Origin: a bacterium
GTDB lineage: Bacteria > UBA8248
Length of the DNA stretch: 64,000 nucleotides
Reading direction: 5' to 3'
Assembly: GCA_965200245.1 (NCBI GenBank)
Contig: CBDATS010000015.1
Span: forward strand, 352,001-416,000
The position numbers were made by a program, and so were the translations under genes. A model generated the notes under the pieces. It made no database searches, was not told the DNA's origin, and was given only the letters and a program-made list of their open reading frames with translations. Positions 3,633-50,471 of the stretch are shown here, one piece after another. Positions within the stretch are counted from its first letter, which is position 1; every line of letters begins with the position of its first letter.

Positions 3633-4499
3633 ATGCGTGGTTTTGACTTCGTGGCACCGACGACCATATCGGCCACTCTAAAAGCGGCAAAAGGCAGAAG
3701 TACAAAGTTCATCGCCGGAGGTACGAATTTTCTTCCCGATCTCAGGCACCAGCACGACGGGCCAGCCAAAGTGGTCATCGACCTGATGAGGGTTCCCGCC
3801 CTGCAAGGGATATCCTCCTCGAAAGGCCAAATCAAGCTCGGCGCGCTGACGACAATGACGGACTTGCTGACTGACAAGACCATTTTGAAAGAAGCGCCCA
3901 TCCTGGCGGCGATGTCGGAAAAGTTTGCAGGGCCTGTCATTCGCAACCGTGCCACTGTGGCCGGAAATATCATCGATGGCGGCCCCGCAGCAGACGCCGT
4001 TCCTCCCCTGCTCGCGCTCAAGGCGAAAGTAAGACTCGCCAGTGAAAGAGGAAGACGGACGGTCGACCTCGACAAGTTCCTCACCGGATACCGCCAGACA
4101 GCCATCAGGCCCGATGAGTTGATCACCGCCGTGACCTTCCCCTCCCCGGGCAGGAGCCATAAATGGGGCTATTACAAACTTGCCCGCCGCAACGCGATGG
4201 CCATCACGGTAGTGGGTGTTGCGGTTGTACTGAAAGTCAGACGCAAGAAGGTAGAGGAAGCGGGAATCTCTCTGGGCTCCGTTACGGCGGCTCCGATACG
4301 CTGTTATGAGGCCGAGAAAATTCTCGAAGGTAACGTAGTGGACCTTGAGCTGGCCCAGGCGGCCGCGGAAGCCTGCGCCGCCGTGGCAACGCCGATTGAC
4401 GACATTCGCGCATCAGCGGAATACCGCAAACTAATGTGTGAGGTATTGCCGCGCCGTCTCATTTGCCAGGCACTGGATATTTCGCAGGACAACGAATAG
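3633..4499 (+). CDS. Molybdenum hydroxylase FAD-binding medium subunit (CoxM/CutM-like)
   Basis: FIAGGTN, IRNRATVAGNI, PIDDIRASAEYR motifs; GAGGAG RBS. Confidence 0.9.
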   Translation: MRGFDFVAPTTISATLKAAKGRSTKFIAGGTNFLPDLRHQHDGPAKVVIDLMRVPALQGISSSKGQIKLGALTTMTDLLTDKTILKEAPILAAMSEKFAGPVIRNRATVAGNIIDGGPAADAVPPLLALKAKVRLASERGRRTVDLDKFLTGYRQTAIRPDELITAVTFPSPGRSHKWGYYKLARRNAMAITVVGVAVVLKVRRKKVEEAGISLGSVTAAPIRCYEAEKILEGNVVDLELAQAAAEACAAVATPIDDIRASAEYRKLMCEVLPRRLICQALDISQDNE

Positions 4500-4538
4500 A
4501 CGACTTCATCGTCTCTTGAGCATTTCATTGGAGAACAC

Positions 4539-5108
4539 TTGAAGATGGCTACAGCGAGCAAATCCAAACGAACCAGAAAATCGAACACACCCGTATACGT
4601 GCCACCCAAGAAGGTACCCATTTCCTTTTCGGTGAACGGGCAGGAAGTCAACGCAGAAGCTCCCGCACACACCAGTCTGCTGTATCTGCTGCGCGATTTC
4701 GGCTTTACCGAGGTAAAAAACGGCTGCGAGGCGGGCGATTGCGGTGCCTGCACGATTCTTCTCGATGGTCTGGCGATGAACGCCTGCTGCGCGCTCGGTG
4801 TTCAGGCGGAGGGACGTGAAATTACCACCGTCAAGGGCATCGGGACGGTGAACAACCTCCATCCAATACAACAAAAATTCATTGAGCACGGTGCCATCCA
4901 GTGTGGTTTCTGCACACCCGGCATGATCGTCGCCTCGAAGGAATTGCTCGACAACAACCCGAATCCCAGCCGGAATGAAATCAAGGCGGGCATCGCAGGC
5001 AATCTTTGTCGATGCACGGGTTACGTGAAGATAATCGACGCTATCGAGGCGGCGGCCAAGGAACTTTCCTCGAAGAATAAAGGCTCGAAGAAAGGAAAAG
5101 GTAAATAA
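4539..5108 (+). CDS. Molybdenum hydroxylase [2Fe-2S] small subunit (CoxS/CutS-like)
   Basis: GCEAGDCGACT, QCGFCTPG, GNLCRCTGY motifs. Confidence 0.93.
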   Translation: MKMATASKSKRTRKSNTPVYVPPKKVPISFSVNGQEVNAEAPAHTSLLYLLRDFGFTEVKNGCEAGDCGACTILLDGLAMNACCALGVQAEGREITTVKGIGTVNNLHPIQQKFIEHGAIQCGFCTPGMIVASKELLDNNPNPSRNEIKAGIAGNLCRCTGYVKIIDAIEAAAKELSSKNKGSKKGKGK

Positions 5109-5110
5109 CC

Positions 5111-6055
5111 GTGACTGCCTCAACGAATTCCACCAAGAAGGAAAAAGGTTCCAAACAAGGCTTCAGGAACGTAGAAGACGTTCAGGAATCGTTCCGACAG
5201 CTTGACTATATTTCAGATCGAACGCTGGCCACCACCCTCTTTTTGGCTACGAAACTCGAAAAACCCCTTTTCCTCGAAGGGGAAGCAGGCGTCGGCAAGA
5301 CGGAACTCGCCAAGGTGCTCGCCAGCGCAATGGATACCGAACTCATCCGCTTGCAGTGCTACGAGGGCCTGGATGCAAACTCGGCTCTGTACGAGTGGAA
5401 CTACGCGAAACAACTCCTCCACATCAAGATGGAGGAAGGCAGGGATTCGGACGCGAAGGAAATCGAGAGGGACATCTTCAGCGAGGAATATCTCATAGAA
5501 CGGCCCCTTCTCCGTGCGCTCTTACGCTCGAAGGACAGGCCAGTGGTCCTGCTCATTGACGAAATCGATCGTTCCGACGAGGAATTCGAGGCGTTTCTGC
5601 TCGAAATCCTGTCCGACTACCAAATCACGATCCCGGAAATGGGAACCGTCCGGGCAGTCAGCAAGCCACTTGTGGTACTCACCAGCAACCGGACGCGCGA
5701 AATTCACGACGCCCTCAAACGCCGCTGCCTGTACCTGTGGGTCGATTATCCCTCCTTCGAGAAAGAGGTGGAGATTATCACGACCAAGGTTCCCGGCATC
5801 AGCGACCGGCTGGCGGAGCAGATTTCCCGCTTCATGACCCAAGCGAGACAGATGGATTTCTACAAGCGTCCGGGCGTGGCCGAATCACTCGACTGGGCAC
5901 AGGCCCTTCTTGCGTTGCATCGCAACGAACTCGATGCCGATGCCGTGCGGGAAACCATCGGCTGCATCCTGAAATACCAGGATGACATCAAACGTGTAGA
6001 GAGTGACGGCCTCGACAGCATGGTGGCGACGGCACAGCTCTCACCCGACGCCTGA
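5111..6055 (+). CDS. MoxR-family AAA+ ATPase, CoxD-like
   Basis: LEGEAGVGKT Walker A, RLQCYEGLD, LLIDEID Walker B, TSNRTREIHDALKRRC. Confidence 0.9.
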   Translation: MTASTNSTKKEKGSKQGFRNVEDVQESFRQLDYISDRTLATTLFLATKLEKPLFLEGEAGVGKTELAKVLASAMDTELIRLQCYEGLDANSALYEWNYAKQLLHIKMEEGRDSDAKEIERDIFSEEYLIERPLLRALLRSKDRPVVLLIDEIDRSDEEFEAFLLEILSDYQITIPEMGTVRAVSKPLVVLTSNRTREIHDALKRRCLYLWVDYPSFEKEVEIITTKVPGISDRLAEQISRFMTQARQMDFYKRPGVAESLDWAQALLALHRNELDADAVRETIGCILKYQDDIKRVESDGLDSMVATAQLSPDA

Positions 6056-6067
6056 TCCGGGAATTTC

Positions 6068-7333
6068 ATGGCCACATCCATTCGTCCCATCGTCCAGGGC
6101 ACACTGCCCAAGCGCAGGATTCGCTTTAAGGGCCGAGGCCTCAAAGGCGAGATGATTGGCTTTTGTCGCATCCTCAGGCGCGCGGGCCTCAAGATTACCT
6201 CAGGACGCATCATCGATGTGTTTCGCTGCTTCGATTCGCTCGAAGCCACGAATCTCGACAATATCTACATCGCCAGCAAGTCGAACCTCATCTCGAGTCA
6301 GGATGAAAGCATGATCTTCGACGCCGTGTTTCGGCAGTACTGGTTCGATGAGGAAGGAAATCCCTACACTGGCGATGAGTCTGTCCAAGTCGACACGCAA
6401 TTCGAGGAAGAAGGCGAAGGGCAGGCCAGCGAAGGGGGCGGATCTTCAGAGGAAGGAGAATCGGATGTCGAGGGCGAAGGTCAGGAAAACCCCGGGCTCC
6501 CTTCGGAGGACGACGTAGAAAGTGCTGCGGAACCCGGCGAGCAGGGAGACGATGACGAGGGGGTCCCCTCCTATAGTCCCGCTGAAGTCATATCCGACAA
6601 GGATTTTTCATCGCTGAACATGGATCAGGTCGCCGAACTCAGGCGACTCATCGCGAAACTCGTGCCCAAGCTTGCGACCAAGATCAGCCGCCGGAAACGG
6701 CCCGACATGCGTTCTCCCGAAATCGATATGAGGCGAAGTGTCAAGAAAAGCGTGCGATCGGGTGGCGAGGTGCTGAAACTCTTCCGCCGGAGAAGAAAGA
6801 TACAAAAAACCCAAATCGTACTTATCTGCGACGTATCCGGTTCAATGGACAGTTATAGCCAGTTTCTGATTCAGTTTCTCTACAGCCTGCAGAACGAGAT
6901 CAAATCACTGCGAACTTTCGTCTTCAGCACACGCCTTTCGGACGCTACGCCGTACCTGCGCCACAAGGACGTGAATACCGCTCTCAAGCGCCTCTCGATG
7001 GAAGTGCACGACTGGAGTGGCGGTACGCAGATCGGCAATTGCCTGAAGACCTTCAACTATGAATACGGCAGAACCATTCTGAACAGCCGAACCATCGTCA
7101 TCGTCATTTCGGACGGCTGGGACCGAGGCGACACGGATACGCTGGCCGAGGAAATGAACCGGCTCAAGAAAATCTGCTACAAACTCTTCTGGCTCAACCC
7201 CTTGCTCGGTAGTCCCGGTTACCGCCCGATCGACAGGGGAATGAGAACGGCCCTTCCCTATTGTGACGAGTTTCTGGCCGCACACAATCTGGACAGTTTA
7301 ATCGACATGACGAACAAGATCGCGCGCATATAA
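6068..7333 (+). CDS. VWA-domain protein, CoxE-like
   Basis: MIDAS DVSGSM, WSGGTQIG, ISDGWDRGD, WLNPL; acidic linker; follows the CoxD-like gene. Confidence 0.9.
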   Translation: MATSIRPIVQGTLPKRRIRFKGRGLKGEMIGFCRILRRAGLKITSGRIIDVFRCFDSLEATNLDNIYIASKSNLISSQDESMIFDAVFRQYWFDEEGNPYTGDESVQVDTQFEEEGEGQASEGGGSSEEGESDVEGEGQENPGLPSEDDVESAAEPGEQGDDDEGVPSYSPAEVISDKDFSSLNMDQVAELRRLIAKLVPKLATKISRRKRPDMRSPEIDMRRSVKKSVRSGGEVLKLFRRRRKIQKTQIVLICDVSGSMDSYSQFLIQFLYSLQNEIKSLRTFVFSTRLSDATPYLRHKDVNTALKRLSMEVHDWSGGTQIGNCLKTFNYEYGRTILNSRTIVIVISDGWDRGDTDTLAEEMNRLKKICYKLFWLNPLLGSPGYRPIDRGMRTALPYCDEFLAAHNLDSLIDMTNKIARI

Positions 7334-24279: not shown

Positions 24280-25008
24280 TTATGACTTTATTGTCGCCGA
24301 CAACCCGGGGAGCATGGCCTGCGTCGGATTCATGGGGAAATGCTCCTCCTCCAAATCGGACTGTGAGAGCATTTTCACAAATGCGTCGAAGTCGTCGGCA
24401 GCCAGCTCAAGGGCAGACCGCCTGAGCAAGCTCATATATTCGGCGAAAGCTCTTGCCTGGCAGTTGAACTGTTTCGCCGGATTGAATTCGATATCCGTGA
24501 AAGCCCGGCAGTTCACATTTTCGTTTATCCATTCCGCCTTATCTTTCAGGGTTCGAATATATATCCAATCGTAAAAGGCATTCGTGGGAGATCGCGGGTA
24601 TCTTTTGCCCTCCAGTTCAAATCCAACAAGAAGCCCGCAGTCCCGTTCGCGCTCCCGGATCAACCGTTTGGCTTCTCGCGGGGGCAGCTCGAATACATCG
24701 TTGAAGGGCCCCCCTCCCTCAAATACCTTGGAACCCTGGTAAACGCTTTCCAGGGGAAATTTTTCACCACCAAGATCGATTTTAAGGCTGAAAGCGCTCA
24801 AACGCCTTCCGATTTCATCGAAGGATTTTGTCGATATTTCCAGGATGTTCTTGAGGCCGCCTTCGCGCGCGGCGGCATGAAGTGCTCGAATGTTTTTCTT
24901 CTTCTGAATTTCAGAAAAACCTGAAGCCCAACGGAATTCGAAAAAGCGTTCCTCTATAAGTCGGGTTTCACCGGAATCGGGAACGACGAACACCGGACGC
25001 ATCGCCAT
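24280..25008 (-). CDS. NADAR-family antitoxin (DarT1-associated, DarG1-like)
   Basis: MAMRPVF, WASGFSEIQKKKNIRALH, LEISTKS..GRRLSAFSL, ESVYQGSKVFEGGGP, FYDWIY, FTDIEFNPAKQFNCQAR. Translationally coupled (TGATG) to the upstream toxin. Confidence 0.75.
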   Translation of the reverse strand: MAMRPVFVVPDSGETRLIEERFFEFRWASGFSEIQKKKNIRALHAAAREGGLKNILEISTKSFDEIGRRLSAFSLKIDLGGEKFPLESVYQGSKVFEGGGPFNDVFELPPREAKRLIRERERDCGLLVGFELEGKRYPRSPTNAFYDWIYIRTLKDKAEWINENVNCRAFTDIEFNPAKQFNCQARAFAEYMSLLRRSALELAADDFDAFVKMLSQSDLEEEHFPMNPTQAMLPGLSATIKS

Positions 25009-25403
25009 CAGCAAGCACCTGTGATGAGTTTTCGCGGCACCGCGCCGGGCACCAGCACCTCAATCTTTTCGGCCGCTTGCAAGCGCCGCTGGAATTCCGG
25101 GTCAATCTTCAGATAGATTGGATTCGACAACCTCCCACCTTCCATTGCCCGAAATTGCATGGGATGGTTATCCGTCATGCAAAGGCTCACGTAGGGATCG
25201 AGGCCCCGGTGGCTATCCAACTGATCGCTGAGTTCGTTCCCGCCTGTGACACGTGGTGGCCACCGTCCTTCCTGCTTCATACGCTTCTTGCAAAGCAGGC
25301 CCTTTTCATCGATTGACGGGATGTTTGCTGCGTCAGTGAAATGATAGAGGCATTTGTGTTGCTCACTTTGCCTGATCTTCGTGATTAGCCAGTCGACATT
25401 CAT
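25008..25403 (-). CDS. DarT-like DNA ADP-ribosyltransferase (DUF4433), short and possibly internally deleted
   Basis: LYHFTDAANIPSIDEKGLL, YVSLC..NHPM, and a C-terminal EVLVP carrying the catalytic Glu; only 131 aa. Confidence 0.72.
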   Translation of the reverse strand: MNVDWLITKIRQSEQHKCLYHFTDAANIPSIDEKGLLCKKRMKQEGRWPPRVTGGNELSDQLDSHRGLDPYVSLCMTDNHPMQFRAMEGGRLSNPIYLKIDPEFQRRLQAAEKIEVLVPGAVPRKLITGAC

Positions 25404-35944: not shown

Positions 35945-37722
35945 ATGGTTGTGGGTTGGAAAAATTTTCGGATACGGCTTCTTGGCTGGCTGCGTCACTA
36001 CGAGTTCTCAGACGATGGCATTTTCTTCCTCACTACCATCATCGTGGGAGCGTTGACCGGATTTGTTGCCGTGTGCTTTCACGTCGCGCTGGGTTGGGCG
36101 CATTATGTTTTTTTTCGGTTCCCACGATCTTTCCCTTATCGAACGTGCCTGGTACTGGGTGGCCATTATACCTGCCGGGGGCGCGTTTCTCTCCGCACTC
36201 TTCCTCCATTACTTCGTGCCCGAGGCCCGGGGCAGCGGTATCCCCCAGACGAAAATCGCATACGTCGCCCACAACGGCCACATCGACAAGCGCGTGTGGA
36301 TATCCAAGTTTCTCATCGGAGTTCTCAACATCGGATCGGGTTCCAGTCTGGGTCGTGAAGGCCCCACAGTTCAGATTTGCTCGGGCATGGCGAGTTGGAT
36401 CGGCGAGACCTTTTCGCTGAGAAGACACCGCGTGCAGGCGCTCGTTCCGGTGGGATGCGCCGCCGCTCTGGCCGCCGCGTTCAACACACCTATCGCCGCC
36501 GTCACTTTCACGCTCGAAGAGTTGGTGGGTGATCTGAATGCGAGGGTGCTCGGATCCATCGTTTTCGCGGCGGTCGCCGCATCGGTTGTCTCGCGCGCCA
36601 TGCTTGGGAACGAGCCTGTCTTCTCCGTGCCGGCATACTCGCTGGACAGTTCCCTGGAACTCCTTTTGTATGCCTTCGTGGGTGTCATCTGCGCCATCGT
36701 CGGCGTCGCATTCACCAAGGGCTTGCTCTTCGCTCGCTCGCAGTGGAAGCGTCTCCGGGGATTCCGGGGGGTTGCCGCCACCGGTATCGGCGGCCTGTTC
36801 GTGGGCGTCATCGGTATCTGGTTTCCCGAAGTTTTCGCCGTCGGCTATCCCGCCGTGAGCAAGGCTCTCACGCACAGCTACACGCTGCCTTTTCTCCTGT
36901 GCCTCGTTGTTCTGAAGCTCATCACGACTGTGGTTTCCTACGGAACCGGCTCTTTGGGCGGCATCTTCGCACCGACGCTCTTCATGGGAGCGATGACGGG
37001 AGGGGCTGTGGCAACTCTCGCCGAGATAGTCCTCCCCGGCTTCGTGGCTCATCCGGGCGGATACGCGCTCGTCGGTATGGGCGCGGCCTTCGCGGCCATC
37101 ATTCGTGCGCCCATGACTTCAGTGCTCATCATCTTCGAACTCACGCAAGACTACAACATCATTCTCGCGCTCATGGTCGCCAACGCCATCTCGCTTACCC
37201 TGGCACGGCATTGGCATCCTGAGCCGATCTACAGCGCACTCTCCTCACAGGACGGCGTCGCGCTGCCCGATCATGAGACCGAGCACCTTCTGCACGAAAT
37301 CCATGTATCTGACGCCATGGTGTCCGATGTCGTCACCCTGTCCGAGGACATCACGATACAAGAGGCGATAGAAAGAACGAGGGGAAGCACCATTTCCGGC
37401 TATCCCGTCCTGAACGCGAACGGGAGACTTTCCGGAATGGCCAGCAACTACGACTTCAGCCAGGCGCAGGCTGCAGGCTGCAGGCATTCTGCACAGGCCC
37501 TTGAGCGAGATTGCGAAGAAGAAATACATCATGCACGCCCATCTGGATCAGTCGCTTGATTCGGTAATGGCGAAGCTGGGCGACAGGAGCATATCACGAC
37601 GGCCCGTCGTGAGCAGGGAGGACCCAACGGAACTTCTGGGGATCATCACTGCCGAGGACGTTATTCACGCCCTCGGCAAAGTGTGGCACGAACAGCAACA
37701 CCATCAACACGATTTCGACTGA
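35945..37722 (+). pseudogene. ClC Cl-/H+ antiporter with CBS pair, broken by two frameshifts
   Basis: GSGIP, GREGP, FTLEE and GIFAP motifs. An extra T in the T8 run at 36108-36115 and a 7-bp tandem duplication at 37466-37485 split it into three ORFs. Confidence 0.85.
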
Positions 37723-40749: not shown

Positions 40750-41616
40750 TCAGTATCCGTCCAGCACTTTCAGGATGGTTCGCCGAACCAGAATGGGCGT
40801 CACTTGCCGTCTGTAATTGTCGCTAGCGCGGATATCGGTCAAGGGTTCGATATCTCCGAGCGTATCCGCCAACACGGTGTCGATGTTCTCCTGGTTGATC
40901 TCTTTGCCCTCAAGACCTTCTTCCGCCGCCTTGAGGCGTCTGAAAACAGCCTCCACACCGCCCAAGCCGATTCTCACCTCCTTGGCAGTCTTGCCATCCT
41001 CTTCGGTGAGCACCGCGGTGGAAACGGATACGCAGGGCTTGTCTTCCTTCGAACGCGTGGTGAAGCGCGTGCACGCCGTACGGAAACCATCGGGCAGCGG
41101 ATCAACCTCTATGGAACAGAGCAATTCATCCTCATCCAGGGCGCACTCGTAATACCCCGTCCAGAACTCCGTCGCCGGAATCACGCGCGCGGATCCATCT
41201 GCCTTTTTGGTATTCATACGCGCTTCCAGGACAAGAAACGCACCGGGAGGATCGGACGCCGGTTCCGCAAAACACAGGTTGCCGCCTACAGTCCCCTGGC
41301 TTCGAATTCGAATCGTGGCCACGTTGTGAAAAATTTCCGCGAGGAGCGGGAAGCGTTCCTGGACGATCGGGGATAGTTCGATCTTGCGGTGCACCGTCCT
41401 CGCCCCGATGCGGATGCCGCCGGTTTCGGTTCCTTCAATGAAGTCCAGATCGCCTGCACCTGCGATGTCAATCAATACCTCGGGTTCGTACACCCCCGAT
41501 TTCATGAGAATCGAGAGAGCCACGCCGCCAGCAAAAACTTTCCCGTCATCGCCATGCTCCTTCAGGGCGGCGAGCGTTTCCTCCGCGCTGTTCGCGGGTA
41601 GGTGTCGAAAAACCAT
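40750..41616 (-). CDS. Molybdenum hydroxylase FAD-binding medium subunit
   Basis: FAGGVAL, IRSQGTVGGN, EPASD, DIRASDNYR. Confidence 0.88.
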   Translation of the reverse strand: MVFRHLPANSAEETLAALKEHGDDGKVFAGGVALSILMKSGVYEPEVLIDIAGAGDLDFIEGTETGGIRIGARTVHRKIELSPIVQERFPLLAEIFHNVATIRIRSQGTVGGNLCFAEPASDPPGAFLVLEARMNTKKADGSARVIPATEFWTGYYECALDEDELLCSIEVDPLPDGFRTACTRFTTRSKEDKPCVSVSTAVLTEEDGKTAKEVRIGLGGVEAVFRRLKAAEEGLEGKEINQENIDTVLADTLGDIEPLTDIRASDNYRRQVTPILVRRTILKVLDGY

Positions 41617-41635
41617 TTTCTCTCCCCTTTCCTCG

Positions 41636-43921
41636 TTATTCGCCGTTTTTCTCGTTCAACGCGGCCAGAACCTTTTCCGGCGTTATCGGCAGTGACGTAA
41701 TACGCACACCCACGGCGTCATAGATCGCGTTGCCGATTGCCGCCGAGGTGCCCAGTTGCGCCATCTCGCCCAACCCTTTCGCTCCATAAGGCCCCGAGGG
41801 GTTTTCCGTCTCGATCAACACGGCTTCGAGTTCGGGCAAATCCTGGGTCGTGGGCAGTTTGTAGTCGAGCCAGTTCGCGTTCACCGGCTGGCCGTCTTCG
41901 CACTCGAAATCTTCCATCATGGCGTAGCCCACGCCCATCAGTGCGCCGCCGTCCAACTGCCCCTGCGCGCCGGCGGGGTTCACGATTGTTCCGCAGTCAT
42001 TCGTGCTGATGACCCGCAAGACCTCGAACGCGCCGGTTTCAGTATCCACTTCCACTTCCGCCACCTTGGCGCCGTAAGCATATGCGGCGGACCAGTTTCC
42101 ATAGCCCGTTACGGGGTCCGGGGTTTCGCTCGGGGAGTCGTACGAAGACGCCGTGTAGACGGCCTCGCTACCCTCTTTTTCATATAACTTCATGTAAGCA
42201 TCGCTGTGGGTCACCTGCCGTTCGGGAGAACTGGTGACGAAAATCTTGCCCTCACGCGCGTCGAGATCCTTCGGGTCACATTCAAGCAGTTCCGACGCGC
42301 CCTTGAACAGCATGTTCCTCGCCTGTACCGAAGCCAGGCGAGTGGCCTCGCCGTCGATGGTCGTCGTGCGGCTTCCGCGCACGCCCCATCCGTAGGGGTT
42401 CACTGCGGTATCGCCGTTGATGATCCGCACATCCTCTACACGTATGCCTATCGCTTCGGCGCAAATCTGTGCGAGCGTGGTGTCCGAGCCGTTGCCCATC
42501 TCGATGGTGCCCGAAAGCAACTGCACGGTGCCGTCCTTGTTCATCTTGATGAACGCGCCCGCCGTTTCCGGACCCATCGCTCGTGCGCCGGTAAAATGAA
42601 CCGCCGCGGCAACTCCGTAGCCACGCCTTTTCCCGTTGCTGCCGGGTTGTTTCTCACGCCAGGGCACGCGTTTGACCGCTTCTTCCACACACTCGGAAAC
42701 GCCGCAGCTTGTAATTTTGGCCCCGATGATGGTGGTATCGCCCCTTTTGACGAAGTTCTTGATGCGAAACTCCGCCGGATCCATGCCGATTTCCTCGGCG
42801 TGCTTGTCCATGGCGAGTTCCGACCCGAACGCATAGCCTGCATTGCCGATTCCGCGCATCGCGCCGCCGGGTGGCACGTTCGTGCAGACAACATCGGCGT
42901 GATGGCGATAGGCCTTGTAGTTATAGATGCTCCCCCCCATGTGCGCCGTAATGGAGCCGACTGCCGGGCTGTAATCGGAATAGCCGCCGTTTTCCACCAC
43001 CATCTGCGTGTCTCGCGCAAGCAGCATGCCGTCCCTGTCAGTGGCGATGCGCCAGACATGGCACTGCTTCGTCCGGTGCGTGCCGAGAAGGAATTCCTCT
43101 TCGCGCGTGTAATAGAACTTCACGGGAAGGTCCAGCTTTTTCGCCGCGATGATGGAGAGGAAATCGATGTTGAACTTGCTCGTCGCCTTTCCGCCGAAAC
43201 CGCCACCCACGTAATTCGTGATCACGCGAATCTGGGCTTCGGGAATCTTGAGAAGTTTCGAGAAATACTGGCTCGACAGACTCGGGCATTGCGAGGAATT
43301 GTAGACCGTTACGTCGCCCTTCTGCGACCACTCGGCGATAGATACGTGCGCCTCCAGGGAACCGTGCATCTGGCGGGAGGAGGAAGTAGCCAGTTCGCTC
43401 ACATGATGGGCTTCGTCGAACATGCGGTCCACATCGCCGAATTCCATGTGCTTTGTGAATGCGATGTTGTTCGGGTACCTGTCATGAATAACGGGGGCAC
43501 CCTCTTCCATCGCCTCTCTCGGATCGAAAACGGCGGGAAGTTCCTCGTAGTCGACATCGATCAAACCGAGTGCTTCTACCGCGATGTCTTCTGAAATCGC
43601 CACGACGGCCGCCACCGAATCCCCCACGTGGCGAACCTTGTCAGAGGCAAGAGGACGCTGGTCGTAGCAAACTGGCACGACACCCCACTCCACTCCCTCG
43701 GGAATGTCCCTAGCCGTCAAGACAAGCTTGACGCCGGGGAGCTTCTCGGCGCGGCTGGTGTCGATGTTCTTGATCCGTGCATGTGGCAGGGGACTTCCGA
43801 GCAGCCTCCCGTGAAGCATTTTGGGCAACTGCAGATCCAAGGTGAACATGGCCCTGCCTGTCACCTTTTCCGGTCCGTCGACGCGAGGTACGCTTTTCCC
43901 GATGTATGAGAGTTCAGCCAT
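41636..43921 (-). CDS. Xanthine dehydrogenase family molybdopterin-binding large subunit
   Basis: IGKSVPRVDG.EKVTG, VGGGFGGK, AMRGIG, EMGNG, GPYGAKGLGE (catalytic Glu). Lacks the CoxL AYxCSFR motif. Confidence 0.92.
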   Translation of the reverse strand: MAELSYIGKSVPRVDGPEKVTGRAMFTLDLQLPKMLHGRLLGSPLPHARIKNIDTSRAEKLPGVKLVLTARDIPEGVEWGVVPVCYDQRPLASDKVRHVGDSVAAVVAISEDIAVEALGLIDVDYEELPAVFDPREAMEEGAPVIHDRYPNNIAFTKHMEFGDVDRMFDEAHHVSELATSSSRQMHGSLEAHVSIAEWSQKGDVTVYNSSQCPSLSSQYFSKLLKIPEAQIRVITNYVGGGFGGKATSKFNIDFLSIIAAKKLDLPVKFYYTREEEFLLGTHRTKQCHVWRIATDRDGMLLARDTQMVVENGGYSDYSPAVGSITAHMGGSIYNYKAYRHHADVVCTNVPPGGAMRGIGNAGYAFGSELAMDKHAEEIGMDPAEFRIKNFVKRGDTTIIGAKITSCGVSECVEEAVKRVPWREKQPGSNGKRRGYGVAAAVHFTGARAMGPETAGAFIKMNKDGTVQLLSGTIEMGNGSDTTLAQICAEAIGIRVEDVRIINGDTAVNPYGWGVRGSRTTTIDGEATRLASVQARNMLFKGASELLECDPKDLDAREGKIFVTSSPERQVTHSDAYMKLYEKEGSEAVYTASSYDSPSETPDPVTGYGNWSAAYAYGAKVAEVEVDTETGAFEVLRVISTNDCGTIVNPAGAQGQLDGGALMGVGYAMMEDFECEDGQPVNANWLDYKLPTTQDLPELEAVLIETENPSGPYGAKGLGEMAQLGTSAAIGNAIYDAVGVRITSLPITPEKVLAALNEKNGE

Positions 43922-44339
43922 CACAACCTCCACTCGTTTGCGGCACCAAACCGCATGCCGTTTTTTTAGTTCTTATTCTCTTGATAGAATTTGATTTTCG
44001 GATGTATACGTTCTTTCTTACCCACCATAATATCCATCGCACTAGCCCGGGACCCGGCAGAGCGCGATGGCGTTTCATTTCGGTTCGATACGCAAATTAT
44101 AGCAACTAGACGGGCAAAACAAAAGGGAATTATATATCAGGGACTACAGGCGACCTGAGCATCGGTGAAACATGGGCAAAAGCCAAAAACACCGATCATG
44201 ACCCGGTGCTTTTTCTACGGCATCCCGGAAGGAGGCAATCTCGAGTCCTGCGTCTTTGCGCTGACATTCCGTCGAATACAATACGGGAGCAAGCCGCAGG
44301 CATCATCGGAAATAACACGGGATTCCACCCAAAAGCGCA

Positions 44340-44493
44340 GGTGATCGACGTGCTCGGGGAGTCGTTCTGCCCCGGTCTGGGCGTCACGCTGAAGGGCCCC
44401 TCGGATACCCGACACCTGCGCCTCGACTACCGGGGCGAATGGACCGGCCGAGAGGACAGGCACTCCGTGAAGGCGGGTTTCTCGATACAGTTC
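44340..44493 (+). pseudogene. Possible remnant of a beta-barrel/autotransporter C-terminus
   Basis: GLGVTLKG...LRLDYRGEW..REDRHSVKAGFSIQF has alternating beta-strand character ending in F; no intact 5' part. Confidence 0.3.
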
Positions 44494-44786
44494 AAGGACC
44501 ACCTGCCGGGCTCACCTAGGTGAGATGGAGCCGGCCGGACCTAAGGCGGACCACAGACCGGGAAACGTCTTTCGGGCTGACCGCAACCGCCCCGAAACAG
44601 GTCAACCTGAAAATACAATTCCTGAGGCAAAACCCCAAAATCAGCATACAAGGTGGCTCCCGGCATGATGAAGAAATTCTCGCGCCAGCTTTTTCCCCTG
44701 CGGTTTGTAGTGTATTATCCGCGAAAATATGAAGCGAATTGCCTGTTTTTCATTCGTGCTGAAACTGCGAGAATTGGAGTGAAGCA

Positions 44787-45533
44787 ATGCCCATTCGTTT
44801 TGATTTTCAGGGTCGAAAGGTCATCCTCACGGGCGCGGCGGGAGCGATGGGAAAACGCATTTTGCAGGGCTATATCGAGGCTGGCGCCAAGGTATTCGCA
44901 ACGGACAGGGGAGGCCCCGCCTTCGACGCGATAGAGGGCCCCTCCGATCAACTCTTCAAGCTGCCCTGCGATCTGGCTGACGTGGAAGCCATCCGCACTA
45001 CCATGCGTGCGGCACTCGAGTGGCTTGGCGGGTGCGATGTGCTCGCGAACGTGGCCGGCTACATGCCGATTCGCCCGCCGCTCGAACTCGAAGAGAAAGA
45101 CTGGAACGTCGTTCTGAACGTGAACCTGCTCGCGCCCTATTTCTGCATTCAGGAGACCATCGAGGCGCTCAAGGCTTCGGGCACGGGGCGCATCATCAGT
45201 TTCGCGTCCATCGCGGGCAAAATGGGTGGCATCGGACCGAACCTCACATACTCCGCCGCCAAAGCGGGCCTGCTCGCTATGACGTTCAACCTGGCGCGAG
45301 AACTCGCCAAGACGGGCGTGACGATCAACACCATCCAGCCCGGCCCGGCCGATACGGGCCTTCATTTCCAGTCCCCACCCGATATGCTCGTGAACGCAGA
45401 GAAGGCACATCCCATGGGCCAACTCACTACGCCAGAGGATGTGTGGCACACCGTCTTGTTCCTCACGAGCGAGGAGACCGCGCACATCAACGGAGAGGCC
45501 GTGGACGTGAACGGCGGCTTCTGGACGGACTAG
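44787..45533 (+). CDS. Short-chain dehydrogenase/reductase
   Basis: TGAAGAMG, NVAG, YSAAK, INTIQPG, VNGG. Confidence 0.9.
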   Translation: MPIRFDFQGRKVILTGAAGAMGKRILQGYIEAGAKVFATDRGGPAFDAIEGPSDQLFKLPCDLADVEAIRTTMRAALEWLGGCDVLANVAGYMPIRPPLELEEKDWNVVLNVNLLAPYFCIQETIEALKASGTGRIISFASIAGKMGGIGPNLTYSAAKAGLLAMTFNLARELAKTGVTINTIQPGPADTGLHFQSPPDMLVNAEKAHPMGQLTTPEDVWHTVLFLTSEETAHINGEAVDVNGGFWTD

Positions 45534-45548
45534 CGCGAGGAAATCACC

Positions 45549-46385
45549 ATGACGAACGGCAACCCGAAAGGTTATGCGAATCCCGACTTGCTCTGGTCGC
45601 CTGCACAGCTCAAGGAGCGCATGGGCGACTCGAACCTGAGGATTATCGACACGCGCCCGGGCGAGCGCTACACGATGGGTCACATCCCCGGCGCGCGGCA
45701 CTTCGACGTCTACGGCGTGAACAGCGACGATTCGGACGAGGCACCCTTGAGAAATTTCTTCTCCATGTGGGCGTTCCTGCTGGGTAACCGGGGTGTGTCG
45801 TTCGGGAACACCATCGTTTTCTACGATGATTTCGTCGGCAACACGAGCGTGCGTGGTTTCTGGGTGCTCGAGCTTTTCGGCCATAAGGACGTGCATGTGC
45901 TCGACGGCGGGTATCGAGGGTGGGAACGTGCGGGGTACGGGACGACGCGCGACGCCGAGGTACCCCGCGCCGCTTCTTTCCAGATGGCGTTCGAGCCGGA
46001 TCGACTCGCCACGCGAGAGGACGTGCTGGCGGCTATCGAGGACGACAACCACATGCTGCTCGATACCCGCTCAGCAGAGGAATGGGAGGGGCGGAGCATG
46101 CGCGCGAAGCGGAGCGGCATCATCCCCGGTGCGGTATGGCAGGAATGGCTCCAGCATCTGACGCCCGAGGGCGAAATGAAGCCTGCCGACGAGCTTCGCG
46201 CACAGTTCGAGGCCATCGGGATTACGCCAGAAAAAGAGGTGACCGCCTACTGACAGACGGGCTACCGTGCGGCGCACGGTTACTTCGCCCTGCGGCTTCT
46301 CGATTACCCGAAAGTAAGGAACTACATGAGTTCCTGGAAGGAATGGGGCAACCGCGAAGATACGCCCATCGTGCAAGCGCAATAA
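45549..46385 (+). CDS. Two-domain rhodanese / sulfurtransferase, probable selenoprotein
   Basis: GHIPGA, VLDGG, LDTRS, then VTAY-TGA(46251-46253)[33 protein letters not shown] to TAA at 46385. TGA sits at the catalytic Cys of the active-site loop. Confidence 0.9.
46254..46292 (+). promoter_or_regulatory. Candidate bacterial SECIS element for the rhodanese
   Basis: Perfect stem ACCGTGC (46264-70) / GCACGGT (46274-80), loop GGC beginning 18 nt after the UGA, lower stem GGGC/GCCC. Confidence 0.75.
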
Positions 46386-46549
46386 CGCACATGCCATGCG
46401 GCTCGGGGAGGCGGAGCGCACTTGCCTTAGGGATGCTCTTCCCAAACAATACGCCGAATTGATATGGAACTTTGTAATCAACATTCACGGCCACTACATC
46501 TTCTGGATGGGGGCACTTTCATTCATTCTCGCATTCCTGGAGGTTTACA

Positions 46550-47566
46550 ATGAAGAGTCATTTCACCCGTATTACCCTGGCCGTCACGTTCGCCCTGGCG
46601 CTCTCGGCGGCCAGCATCGCCTCGGCGGCACCCACACTCAAACTGGGGGCTGCCAGCAACAACGGCGGCATGGTCGTCTTCGTCGGCGTCGACAAGGGCT
46701 TTTTTGCAAAAAACGGGCTGGACGCGAAGGTCGTCGTGCGCAACACGGGCGCGCAGCTTACCAAGTCCCTGAAAGCCGGTCAGATCGACTTCGCTCCCGC
46801 GGCGTTTACCAACCTTCCCGCGGCACTTGAGCGCGGCATCAAGGTGCGCGGCGTCGTGGGTTACGTTGGCGGTTCCTACAAGAAATCCACAACGGATGAG
46901 ATGGTGGGCATCGCCGCACGCCCCGGCACCGGCATCAAGGGCATCAAGGACCTGAAGGACAAGAAAATCGGCGCGACCTTCGGCTCCACCGGCGACCTAT
47001 ACCTCCGTACCCTCCTCGAGAGAAACGGCATCGGTGTGGGAGGCGTGCGCCGCATCAACGTGCGTCCGCCGAGCCTTGTCTCGTTGTTCGACTCTGGCGG
47101 CGTGGACGCCATGGTCGCCTGGGAACCCTACCTCACCCGCATGACCGACAAGGTGAAGGGTTCTGCCATCGTGTCGCGCGGCGGCGACTACGTGTGCTTC
47201 TGCGCGGGTATGCACGGCGTTCCCGAACGCGTCTACAAGGACAAGAAGGCGACCCAGGCGTTCGTGAACGGCATGTCCGAGGCGGCCGCCTACGTGCGTG
47301 ACCCGAAGAATCTGGATGAAATCTCGAAAATCGGTGCTCGCTACGTCCGCGGCATGGACGCCGCCCTCATCAAGCGCACCTTCAAGTGGTGGACCTATGA
47401 CCCGCGTCTGGGCGAGAACACGCTCAAGGCCTTCAATTTCTCGGTGAAACAGCTCATTGCGCAAAAGAAGATGAAGCGTCCCTACGACCCCAAGAAATAC
47501 TTCGACTTCCAGTTCATCAACCGGACCATGAAGGAACATCCCGAGTGGTTCAAGGACCTCAACTAG
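46550..47566 (+). CDS. ABC transporter substrate-binding protein, SsuA/TauA/NMT1 type
   Basis: Signal peptide; DKGFFAKNGL, DLKDKKIGATFGS, GGVDAMVAWEP. Confidence 0.88.
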   Translation: MKSHFTRITLAVTFALALSAASIASAAPTLKLGAASNNGGMVVFVGVDKGFFAKNGLDAKVVVRNTGAQLTKSLKAGQIDFAPAAFTNLPAALERGIKVRGVVGYVGGSYKKSTTDEMVGIAARPGTGIKGIKDLKDKKIGATFGSTGDLYLRTLLERNGIGVGGVRRINVRPPSLVSLFDSGGVDAMVAWEPYLTRMTDKVKGSAIVSRGGDYVCFCAGMHGVPERVYKDKKATQAFVNGMSEAAAYVRDPKNLDEISKIGARYVRGMDAALIKRTFKWWTYDPRLGENTLKAFNFSVKQLIAQKKMKRPYDPKKYFDFQFINRTMKEHPEWFKDLN

Positions 47567-47588
47567 CCGCAATCGAAGCTGCCTCCCG

Positions 47589-47620
47589 TCCGCGCCCCGT
47601 GCCACTTGCCGGGGCGCGGA
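47589..47620 (+). other. Intercistronic stem-loop after the binding-protein gene
   Basis: TCCGCGCCCCG-N10-CGGGGCGCGGA; typical mRNA-stabilising hairpin position. Confidence 0.6.
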
Positions 47621-47646
47621 TTGCGCCTGAAAGGAAACGATGAAAC

Positions 47647-48435
47647 ATGCCGGCGAAACTCGTAGTCGAGAGACTATCGCATCACTATCCGGACGAATAT
47701 ACGGGGGAGGATGTCCACGCACTCGATCAGGTGAGCCTCTCGGTGGAGGACGGCGAGTTTTCCGCCGTCGTAGGTCCCAGCGGCTGCGGAAAGACCACGT
47801 TGCTCAACATCCTCGCCGGGCTTCTCCCTCATGGCGAGGGCAGCGTAAAGGTGGACGGCAAGGAGGTGCAGGGACCGGGGCCGGACCGTGGAGTCGTGTT
47901 TCAGGAGCACGCGATTCTTCCCTGGCGCACCGTAGCGAGAAACATCGGCCACGGCCTGGAGATCCAGGGCGTCGCCAAAAACGAACGGGAACAAAGGGTA
48001 CAGGAGTTTGTCGATCTGGTCGGCCTCTCGGGTTTTGAGGACCGCTACCCGCACGAACTCTCCGGCGGCATGAAACAGCGCTGCGCTCTCGCACGGACAC
48101 TGTGCGCAAATCCGGTGGTGATGCTGATGGACGAACCCTTCGCCGCCGTGGACGCGCAGACGAGAATCACCCTGCAGGAAGAGTTGAACCGTATCGCCAT
48201 CGCAACGAAAAAGACGATTCTCTTCATTACGCACAACGTGGATGAGGCAGCGTTCCTGGGCGACAGGTGCTTCATATTCTCGCGTCGTCCGGGGAAGCTC
48301 AAGGCCACCGTCAAAATCGACGTTCCGCGAGAAAAACGCATCTGGAAGGACCTGCTCTCCGAGAGGGCCTACACCGACCCGCGCGATGAAATTCTCCGCC
48401 TCGTGCGCGAGGAGGTGTTCGATGACGAGGAGTAA
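47647..48435 (+). CDS. ABC transporter ATPase, TauB/SsuB type
   Basis: GPSGCGKTT, LSGGMKQR, LMDEPF, ITH. Confidence 0.93.
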   Translation: MPAKLVVERLSHHYPDEYTGEDVHALDQVSLSVEDGEFSAVVGPSGCGKTTLLNILAGLLPHGEGSVKVDGKEVQGPGPDRGVVFQEHAILPWRTVARNIGHGLEIQGVAKNEREQRVQEFVDLVGLSGFEDRYPHELSGGMKQRCALARTLCANPVVMLMDEPFAAVDAQTRITLQEELNRIAIATKKTILFITHNVDEAAFLGDRCFIFSRRPGKLKATVKIDVPREKRIWKDLLSERAYTDPRDEILRLVREEVFDDEE

Positions 48436-49246
48436 CGGGACGGCATCGAGAGCGAAACCGCAGTCGAGACAGTGGAGAAGGTTCGTCAGAGGGGGCGGGG
48501 TCGAACTCGTGCTCCTCATCCTGTTCGTTCTGCTGTTGTGGAGCTTTATCTCGCAGAGCATCCCCAACCCGAGCCGCTACCTGCCCTCACCCGTCTCGGT
48601 CGTTCTCTCCTCCTACGACGTCATCTGGAAGGGTTTGTTGCCCAACTTCATCGGGCAGACACTGTGGCGGCTCGTCATCGGCAGCGCCATCGGCCTGTTG
48701 CTCGGTATCCCCTTCGGCATCGCCTTGGGGCTGAACCGCACCGTATCCGACATGTTCTACCCCATCATGAACTTCTTTCAATCCATATCGGGTATCGCGA
48801 TTCTTCCCATCATTGTCGTCTGGTGGGGCAACAGCGAGAAGACAGTGTTCGCCGTCATCCTTTACACATGTTTTTTCCCCATCGCCTTTAATGTGTTAAC
48901 GGGAGTGCGCAGCACTCCCATGATACTGGTGAACGCCCTGCGAACGTTGGGCGCATCGCGCATTCGAATCGTGAAGGACGTACTGATTCCGAGTGCCATG
49001 CCCCATATTGCTACCGGGGCACGGCTTGGCATCGGCTACGCCTGGCGGGCCGTCATCGCCGGGGAGATGCTCGCCGGCAGACGCGGTCTCGGGTGGATGA
49101 TCTTCACTTCCCAGGACGCGGACCTCACCGCGCAGGTTATCCTTGGGATGGTGATGATCGGCGTTATCTGGATCATGATCGACCGCTTCGCCCTTCGTCC
49201 CATCGAGGCGGACACCATCCAAAGGTGGGGGCTCGTGCAAAGATGA
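48422..49246 (+). CDS. ABC transporter permease, TauC/SsuC type
   Basis: TM segments, EAA-like ALRTLGAS, AWRAVIAGEM. Confidence 0.9.
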   Translation: MTRSNGTASRAKPQSRQWRRFVRGGGVELVLLILFVLLLWSFISQSIPNPSRYLPSPVSVVLSSYDVIWKGLLPNFIGQTLWRLVIGSAIGLLLGIPFGIALGLNRTVSDMFYPIMNFFQSISGIAILPIIVVWWGNSEKTVFAVILYTCFFPIAFNVLTGVRSTPMILVNALRTLGASRIRIVKDVLIPSAMPHIATGARLGIGYAWRAVIAGEMLAGRRGLGWMIFTSQDADLTAQVILGMVMIGVIWIMIDRFALRPIEADTIQRWGLVQR

Positions 49247-50103
49247 GCGTACTCCAGGCGGCGTCCATCAGCCTCCAGAAACGATTCGGCCGCCAAAGGC
49301 TGCGGAAGATTCTGCTGGGGAGCATCCCATTCGTCGTTCTGCTCGCCTTGTGGCAGATGAACACCGAAATGAAATGGCTCCCGCCGGTGTACATTCCGCC
49401 CATCGCTTCCATCTGGGAGGCGATCTACACGCTTTCAGAAGGCTGTGCGGGTGCGGGCGCTGTGCTCTCGATGCAGTACGAGTGCCTGTTCACGAACCAT
49501 ATACTGTCGAGCCTAGGCCGCGTGGGCCTTAGCCTCGTCATCGGTATCCCTTCGGGCATCGCCCTGGGCGTGCTGGCGGGCATGAGCCGTCGCTTCGCCC
49601 ACGCGCTCGAGCCCATTGGCGTGTTCGCCAACGCCATATCAGGCATCGCCTGGGTGCCTCTCGCCATCGTGTGGTTCGGAACCGGCTGGCTCACGACGCT
49701 CTTCATTCTGCTGAACACCGTGTTCTGGCTCATTTTCTTCAACACGCTCCTGGGCGTGCGGGGAGTCCCGAGGGTATATGAAAACTCCGTCATGACAATG
49801 GGCGGCGGGCGATGGGCCATCATCACCCAGGTCTACATCCCAGGCGCACTGCCCAGCATCGTCACGGGCGTGCGCATGAGCATGGGCTTCGGCTGGCGCG
49901 CACTCATCGCTGCGGAGATGATAGGCGGCGACAGCGGCCTCGGATTCATGATCTTTGTCTCCGCCGCCGAATACAAGATTGAGGAAGTGTTCCTGGGCGT
50001 GCTCGTCATCGCCATCATATGGATGATTACGGACAGGCTGCTTTTGATCCCCCTGGAGAAATGGACCATCCAGAGGTGGGGCATGGTCTGGAGGCCATCG
50101 TAA
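49243..50103 (+). CDS. ABC transporter permease, second
   Basis: ATGA overlap; PGALPSI, GWRALIAAEM. Confidence 0.9.
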   Translation: MSVLQAASISLQKRFGRQRLRKILLGSIPFVVLLALWQMNTEMKWLPPVYIPPIASIWEAIYTLSEGCAGAGAVLSMQYECLFTNHILSSLGRVGLSLVIGIPSGIALGVLAGMSRRFAHALEPIGVFANAISGIAWVPLAIVWFGTGWLTTLFILLNTVFWLIFFNTLLGVRGVPRVYENSVMTMGGGRWAIITQVYIPGALPSIVTGVRMSMGFGWRALIAAEMIGGDSGLGFMIFVSAAEYKIEEVFLGVLVIAIIWMITDRLLLIPLEKWTIQRWGMVWRPS

Positions 50104-50105
50104 TA

Positions 50106-50471
50106 ATGGACGATTCCCAAAAAACGTCCAAAGGTACCGCCCCCGAACGACGCTGGACACAGCACCCCACCGTGCGTTTCCTAGCCGTCGCGGCGCTACT
50201 GTTTGGTCTGTATTACGGATACGGCTACGCGACCGCTCCTTCGCGTCTCACACCCGCGCTCAAGGAACACCTGGCGACGAATCCCCAGAAACTCGCCCTG
50301 CTCGTCACGGCAAAGTTTCCCCCCGAGGAATTTCACATCCGCATTTATCAGCAACTCGGCAGCATGCGCGGTGTCAAGGGTTCCACGGCCGAACTCGTCT
50401 CCGTAACACCCTCGGGCCTGAGCACACTCTCGCAGTATTACTGGATCGAGAAAATTGACCTGAAGAGGTGA
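50106..50471 (+). CDS. Small membrane-anchored hypothetical protein, last gene of the ABC operon
   Basis: One N-terminal hydrophobic segment then a soluble domain (FPPEEFH); starts 2 nt after the permease stop. Confidence 0.7.
   Translation: MDDSQKTSKGTAPERRWTQHPTVRFLAVAALLFGLYYGYGYATAPSRLTPALKEHLATNPQKLALLVTAKFPPEEFHIRIYQQLGSMRGVKGSTAELVSVTPSGLSTLSQYYWIEKIDLKR

Follow-up and report, generated by a model that had tools for sequence, protein, structure and literature searches.

A predicted selenocysteine rhodanese of the tandem-domain SseA/RhdA type with a SECIS-type hairpin in its active-site loop

Sargasso Sea data yielded a rhodanese selenoprotein belonging to COG2897 in 2005 (PMC1088965). 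Such a protein was described again in Olavius symbionts (PMC1976440), and it is listed among the predicted selenoprotein families in PMC9312934. In Table 1 of PMC13188914, the COG2897 selenocysteine (Sec) rhodanese appears as form 4, with the motif UxxG. The same motif is carried by form 2, whose representative is filed under the single-domain COG0607 (PMC9312934). The accepted rhodanese mechanism is a double displacement through a persulfide (PMC9369223). Cys/Sec conversions in general are treated in PMC1794560, and in PMC13510729 rhodanese is named in a reference only. We found no biochemistry of any Sec rhodanese in the open-access literature, which agrees with a preliminary description of the present locus, where these enzymes were said to be predicted and little characterized.

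The stretch of DNA analysed here (64,000 nucleotides; hereafter the window) encodes a protein that shares with COG2897/form 4 the tandem SseA-type architecture, a predicted Sec at the catalytic Cys position and a SECIS-type hairpin just downstream. The form 4 motif with one Sec is present as U235-Q-T-G238, and the tandem architecture is apparent from two Pfam stretches and from full-length matches to PRK11493, RhdA and the Thermus thermophilus rhodanese 1uar. The window protein is likened by architecture and motif only to the listed form 4 representatives (MCY3690685.1, MQG53192.1 and AACY01016424). It has the rhodanese domain in common with the Sec rhodanese forms 1, 2, 3 and 5 (UxxS, UxxG, CxU and UxxxxU) and with Geobacter ExtH, and falls outside both form 3 and ExtH by its scores (NF041203, 36 bits versus a cut-off of 115; ExtH, 44.1 versus 200). 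Judged from these sequence features, the protein fits COG2897, form 4, a selenoprotein family known as a prediction since 2005, so that it would not be new in kind, and the clade of Sec forms to which it belongs may already be listed in BSepDB. This clade may share the type of form 4 but not its origin, because our tree suggests a Sec gain separate from that of a second truncated SseA clade (see below).

The in-frame TGA and the encoded protein

In the standard list of open reading frames, the rhodanese ends after 234 aa at TGA 46251-46253. Both this stop and the continuation of the frame for a further 43 codons with a rhodanese tail, as given in the preliminary description, were reproduced by our translation. 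The frame starts with ATG at 45549 and is closed by TAA 46383-46385 once TGA is read as Sec, and U235 is the sole odd codon in the 278-residue translation (Table 1). A search of 43800-47000 gave no sigma-70-type promoter.

Table 1 Features of the predicted Sec rhodanese locus and its neighbours (positions in the window).
Feature	Position	Strand	Basis
Predicted Sec rhodanese gene, 278 aa, tandem-domain SseA/RhdA type	45549-46385	+	Translation with TGA = U; Pfam; structure match
In-frame TGA at the catalytic position, predicted Sec codon	46251-46253	+	Same alignment column as the catalytic Cys in RhdA and in the T. thermophilus enzyme
Read-through tail, 43 codons: rest of the active-site loop and C-terminal rhodanese signature	46254-46385	+	dN/dS
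Bacterial SECIS-type hairpin, 7-bp stem, GGC loop, within the codons of the active-site loop and next helix	46264-46280	+	Pairing, conservation, model constraints
Shine-Dalgarno-like GAGGA 5' of the start codon	45537-45541	+	Read off the sequence
Short-chain dehydrogenase (FabG-like SDR), 15 nt 5' of the rhodanese	44787-45533	+	Pfam adh_short_C2
SsuA/TauA-like ABC importer cassette (binding protein, ATPase, two permeases); accessory	46550-50103	+	NMT1-like and ABC domains
Xanthine-oxidase-family molybdoenzyme, large and FAD subunits	41636-43933, 40750-41616	-	Closest structure 4-hydroxybenzoyl-CoA reductase alpha

The window protein contains two stretches matching Pfam Rhodanese (E 1.5e-34), and its best PDB sequence match is RhdA (1e0c; E 2.2e-41, residues 9-274). 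A structure model built with Cys at position 235 (pLDDT 90.7) superposes with TM scores of 0.86 to 1uar and 0.81 to 1e0c, which have the same two-domain fold with a single catalytic chalcogen. Residue 235 aligns with RhdA Cys230 and with the catalytic Cys of the T. thermophilus rhodanese, and a stop at this position would delete the whole catalytic loop. The RhdA loop C-Q-T-x-x-R matches that of the window protein, in which Thr237 and Arg240 are retained as the equivalents of RhdA Thr232 and Arg235, two residues that contact thiosulfate and glutathione in a docking figure (PMC3458005). The differences to RhdA and 1uar (30-34% identity) are Sec in place of Cys and an Ala where RhdA has Ser236. 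The window rhodanese is devoid of Cys, and hence of a resolving Cys. A Cys59/Cys100 pair, which could be resolving or structural, is found in the deeper-branching Sec forms L017-L023 and L025 and is missing from the subclade of the window protein.

The best NCBIfam match is PRK11493, the SseA equivalog (E. coli SseA/3-mercaptopyruvate sulfurtransferase), over residues 22-277. Yet the score of 136.4 bits lies below the cut-off of 250 and the protein is not a member of the equivalog; its substrate is therefore not assignable.

Conservation of the TGA, the tail and the hairpin

Among the best 120 of 621 matches in a protein search, 25 stop right at residue 234, 94 carry Cys235 and one is a shorter fragment. 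Five of the Cys homologues (P0044, P0047, P0051, P0065 and P0075) are 434-436 aa long and carry ~155 extra N-terminal residues, a putative fusion. A genome scan confirmed 132 relatives; we used the best 80 of these, of which 79 span the site (L030 ends short of it). The codon at the site is TGA in 25 loci, TGC in 39 and TGT in 15, so that the alignment of homologues for Cys/TGA pairs, proposed beforehand as a check, returned 25 TGA against 54 Cys codons. The 25 TGA genomes encode proteins with 74-93% identity to the window rhodanese, and their titles, where a lineage is named, give Nitrospinota or Candidatus Tectomicrobia. In each of them the frame stays open for 42-46 codons past the TGA. Some genomes carry two family members (L017 and L032; L039 and L080; L021 and L079), and an isolate name is common to L017 (Sec) and L032 (Cys) as well as to L021 (Sec) and L079 (Cys).

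Pooled pairwise comparison of the 25 TGA loci and the window (26 sequences) gave a dN/dS of 0.155 for codons 245-275, after the hairpin, versus 0.178 for codons 10-234. The region past the TGA, for which a lack of constraint had been named as grounds to abandon the selenoprotein reading, is under purifying selection. Within the hairpin itself (codons 236-244), pN is 0 and pS is 0.049 versus 0.43-0.47 elsewhere. In segments of nine codons, synonymous divergence is lowest over codons 236-244 (0.042); the 240 other, non-overlapping segments have a median of 0.309 and do not fall below 0.178, which corresponds to an about seven-fold drop across the hairpin. The same residues are encoded by varied codons in 23 Cys loci that share the loop; the constraint on the hairpin codons therefore acts on the RNA.

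The stem is formed by seven Watson-Crick pairs (46264-46270 with 46274-46280) that enclose the 3-nt loop GGC at 46271-46273. The loop begins at +18 from the TGA, with 17 nt separating UGA and loop, as had been noted for a perfect 7-bp hairpin with a G-initiated loop. The published bSECIS model (PMC13188914) allows a loop of 3-9 nt, a stem of 4-16 bp, a G in the first two loop positions, a spacing of 16-37 nt and an energy of at most -7.5 kcal/mol; the hairpin lies within these limits (3 nt, 7 bp, 17 nt and -9.7 to -10.2 kcal/mol). A strict test, demanding a perfect stem of at least 7 bp and a G-initiated loop beginning at +16 to +20, was passed by 2 of the 2085 TGA triplets of the window and, as a control, by 102 of 127,874 arbitrary positions. 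When the published bacterial SECIS model was applied in simplified form, 104 of the 2085 TGAs (5%) passed. On inspection by eye, the TGA at 46251 is the only one of these 104 TGA-plus-hairpin sites that is flanked on either side by coding sequence of a family-supported gene. Folding z-scores against shuffled sequences, taken for segments of three lengths (-0.23, -2.02 and +0.39), were uninformative. Taken by itself, the hairpin carries less weight than the earlier wording of a "clear SECIS" implies, given the share of TGAs passing the loose model and the folding z-scores.

All seven stem pairs are kept in 23 of the 26 TGA sequences (window included) and six of seven in the remaining three, while the 54 Cys loci reach at most four. 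These 26 sequences are related by descent and do not represent 26 independent observations. We saw no compensatory stem changes among them, as the three variants each lose one pair.

We also searched for the Sec machinery. No tRNA, including tRNA-Sec, was detected in the window or in the 33 of 80 loci scanned, Rfam had no match in the window, and SelA, SelB or SelD domains were found neither among the 57 window ORFs nor among 30 flank ORFs hand-picked out of many more. As sel genes need not lie close to the genes they serve, this is no evidence of absence. The orthologue L018, which is 77% identical and has the TGA and the same hairpin, stems from the isolate FO_M_Nitrospinota_01. This isolate is listed in BSepDB under GTDB UBA8248 with 54 selenoprotein genes, three of the top ten genomes of that database are UBA8248, and an entry requires at least two Sec pathway genes per genome (PMC13326102). 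The listing backs Sec use in the window's own genome indirectly; judged from its orthologues, the window probably belongs to UBA8248 as well.

Two readings of the TGA without Sec have to be weighed against these data. A real stop, leaving a pseudogene or a truncated protein, or else a sequencing error, would be in line with the common use of TGA as a stop (18 of 46 family-supported window genes) and with the Sec machinery of the window's own genome being unseen. Such a stop would however cost the protein its entire catalytic loop, and it is at odds with a TGA common to 25 genomes at 74-93% protein identity, with purifying selection on the tail (dN/dS 0.155) and with nearly frozen hairpin codons. 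We rejected this reading as very improbable; a misread TGC or TGT in particular is dismissed by the same TGA in 25 other genomes. Still more remote, with nothing specific speaking for it, is a genome-wide reassignment of UGA to Trp or Gly, by which residue 235 would not be Sec. All nine Trp codons of the rhodanese gene are TGG, the residue-235 column holds Cys in 54 of 54 non-TGA loci, and the 18 of 46 family-supported genes that end in TGA include several with only 0-16 codons of read-through; reassignment was rejected on the stop usage of TGA and on the Trp codons. Taken together, 45549-46385 is almost certainly a true selenoprotein gene with Sec insertion at residue 235. The case for the hidden Sec rhodanese proposed earlier is carried by the conservation of the TGA, the hairpin and the tail across relatives rather than by the hairpin fold.

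Neighbourhood and candidate functions

The SDR gene lies immediately upstream of the rhodanese in 25 of 25 TGA loci versus 1 of 54 Cys loci (L027), and is a probable operon partner. On the downstream side, an ABC binding-protein match is present in 16 of 24 assessable TGA loci and cleanly missing in eight; in the window, the SsuA family match of 106.7 bits is below the cut-off of 163.5. Of the 23 TGA loci that could be assessed for them, 20 have the molybdoenzyme genes adjoining the SDR and rhodanese genes. No 2Fe-2S subunit was seen beside the molybdoenzyme pair at 40750-43933. Because synteny extends over the entire region, the link to the SDR is the only distinctive one, and no substrate of the rhodanese follows from it.

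Several further features of the window were recorded. A separate cluster of FAD, 2Fe-2S, AAA and CoxE-like genes lies at 3633-7333 (+), 37 kb from the molybdoenzyme pair. A DarT1-associated NADAR antitoxin domain (Pfam E 1.5e-76) is encoded at 24280-25014 (-), adjoined by a 131-aa ORF at 25008-25403. A 150-aa ORF at 50019-50471 (+) that overlaps the permease end has no Pfam match, and similar ORFs occur in 12 loci; it may be an alternative frame. Near 37650-37680 (-), in the gap after a chloride-channel gene, we noted a 13-bp perfect hairpin (-23.5 kcal/mol), possibly a terminator.

SelB would bind the hairpin directly past the UGA and direct the insertion of Sec at residue 235, yielding the full 278-aa two-domain rhodanese with Sec in place of the single catalytic Cys. 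By analogy to rhodaneses with Cys, the selenolate of Sec235 would take sulfur from a thiosulfate-type or persulfide donor, and the resulting enzyme Se-S intermediate would hand the sulfur to a thiol or another acceptor. The selenosulfide or perselenide intermediate proposed in the preliminary description likewise follows by analogy. We regard sulfane-sulfur transfer by such a double displacement as somewhat better than an even bet, a judgement that covers the whole explanation including Sec insertion.

Other tasks for a Sec rhodanese are conceivable. In RhdA, the single Cys230 serves to scavenge the glutathione thiyl radical, and oxidative defects are seen in the RhdA mutant (PMC3458005); reviews moreover grade most predicted selenoproteins as probably redox. 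The main job of the protein might be thiol-redox defence, i.e., radical or peroxide handling and thiol recycling, instead of sulfur transfer, but the absence of a resolving Cys and an intact rhodanese loop and fold make this unlikely. We consider it quite improbable that the protein is a selenium carrier, in which an Se-Se perselenide would serve selenophosphate synthesis or selenite handling. A Cys rhodanese does bind selenium 1:1 as perselenide in vitro (PMC9369223), and the lineage includes genomes described as very rich in selenoproteins; as the Cys form already binds selenium, however, Sec would be needless. Furthermore, no selenium-metabolism gene was found in the window or among the 30 flank ORFs examined, and the ExtH match of 44 bits is far under its cut-off of 200. 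A dedicated sulfur or selenium donor for maturation of the neighbouring molybdoenzyme is suggested by the adjacency of the two in most TGA loci. Xanthine-oxidase-family enzymes need a terminal sulfido ligand. The molybdoenzyme genes are nevertheless placed on the opposite strand, ~850 bp away, and are absent in L019, L020 and L023. Their adjacency is explained by shared descent, because unrelated genes of the region are equally syntenic, and we give the donor role as little credence as that of a selenium carrier.

Origin of Sec and substitutions in the active-site loop

For the origin of Sec we built a quick tree of 80 rows with midpoint root, leaving out the Sec column and the hairpin codons. 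A single branch (SH-aLRT 98) separates the 26 TGA forms from the remaining rows, with the Cys loci L039 and L032 next to them. Ala241 and Gly244 are found in 26 of 26 Sec forms and in none of the 54 Cys loci, which uniformly have Ser241 together with Ala or Thr at 244. Among the 94 Cys proteins in the matches listed, Ala241 occurs in one and Gly244 in one, and none has both. The substitutions Ser241Ala and Ala244Gly are those that build the stem. Because all Sec forms group in one clade, the co-occurrence of hairpin and substitutions counts as one event, not 26. The natural Cys sister enzymes are 66-72% identical to the Sec form, and the nearest Cys loci, L039 and L078, show only five nucleotide differences to the window when the codon and the 27 bases after it are compared.

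Position 241 aligns with RhdA Ser236. This serine is reported to be among the residues that lower the pKa of the catalytic Cys230 (PMC3458005). These observations led us to a tentative scenario, which we hold to be possible although doubtful. In a separate Cys-to-Sec conversion, the SECIS would have been written into the catalytic loop, with Ser241Ala and Ala244Gly needed for the stem, and the enzyme would since be locked into Sec as by a molecular ratchet. The pKa of Sec is below that of Cys. The loss of Ser241 might be tolerated by the more acidic Sec and be crippling to a Cys revertant, by which the enzyme would become locked into selenium.

A wider protein search (best 150 of 12,323) revealed P0143, which is 46% identical and ends at the same column. 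Its relatives of 200-340 aa among the matches listed (n = 111) comprise 82 proteins that end at that column and 27 with Cys. This second truncated group (P0143, P0321, P0339, P0376 and relatives) is large and interleaved with Cys forms, and its names are mostly Tectomicrobia or Entotheonellaceae, with one Nitrospinae. Its members probably are Sec rhodaneses too, Sec having been gained or lost more than once, with the TGA deduced from the protein ends. A single clade of all truncated forms was rejected by an AU test (p 1.7e-51) on a 64-row subsample (7 long-branch rows dropped from 71) with a quick tree and no mixture model. The simpler reading of this pattern is that Sec was gained separately in the window clade and in the second group, the less simple one being a single early gain followed by many losses.

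For twenty years, Sec rhodaneses of the SseA type have stood as predictions. What the present analysis adds is the single clade of TGA forms beside Cys relatives, and a SECIS-type hairpin that lies within the active-site loop at the price of two amino-acid changes, Ser241Ala and Ala244Gly. For annotation, the family is a case in which gene callers truncate a protein just short of its catalytic residue (25 of the best 120 of 621 matches). A Sec/Cys pair at 66-72% identity with few nucleotide differences at the site offers a clean test of the role of selenium in sulfur transfer, and also of whether a SECIS in the coding region can trap an enzyme in the use of Sec. If the tentative ratchet were true, the natural Cys sister enzymes at this identity would serve as its controls.
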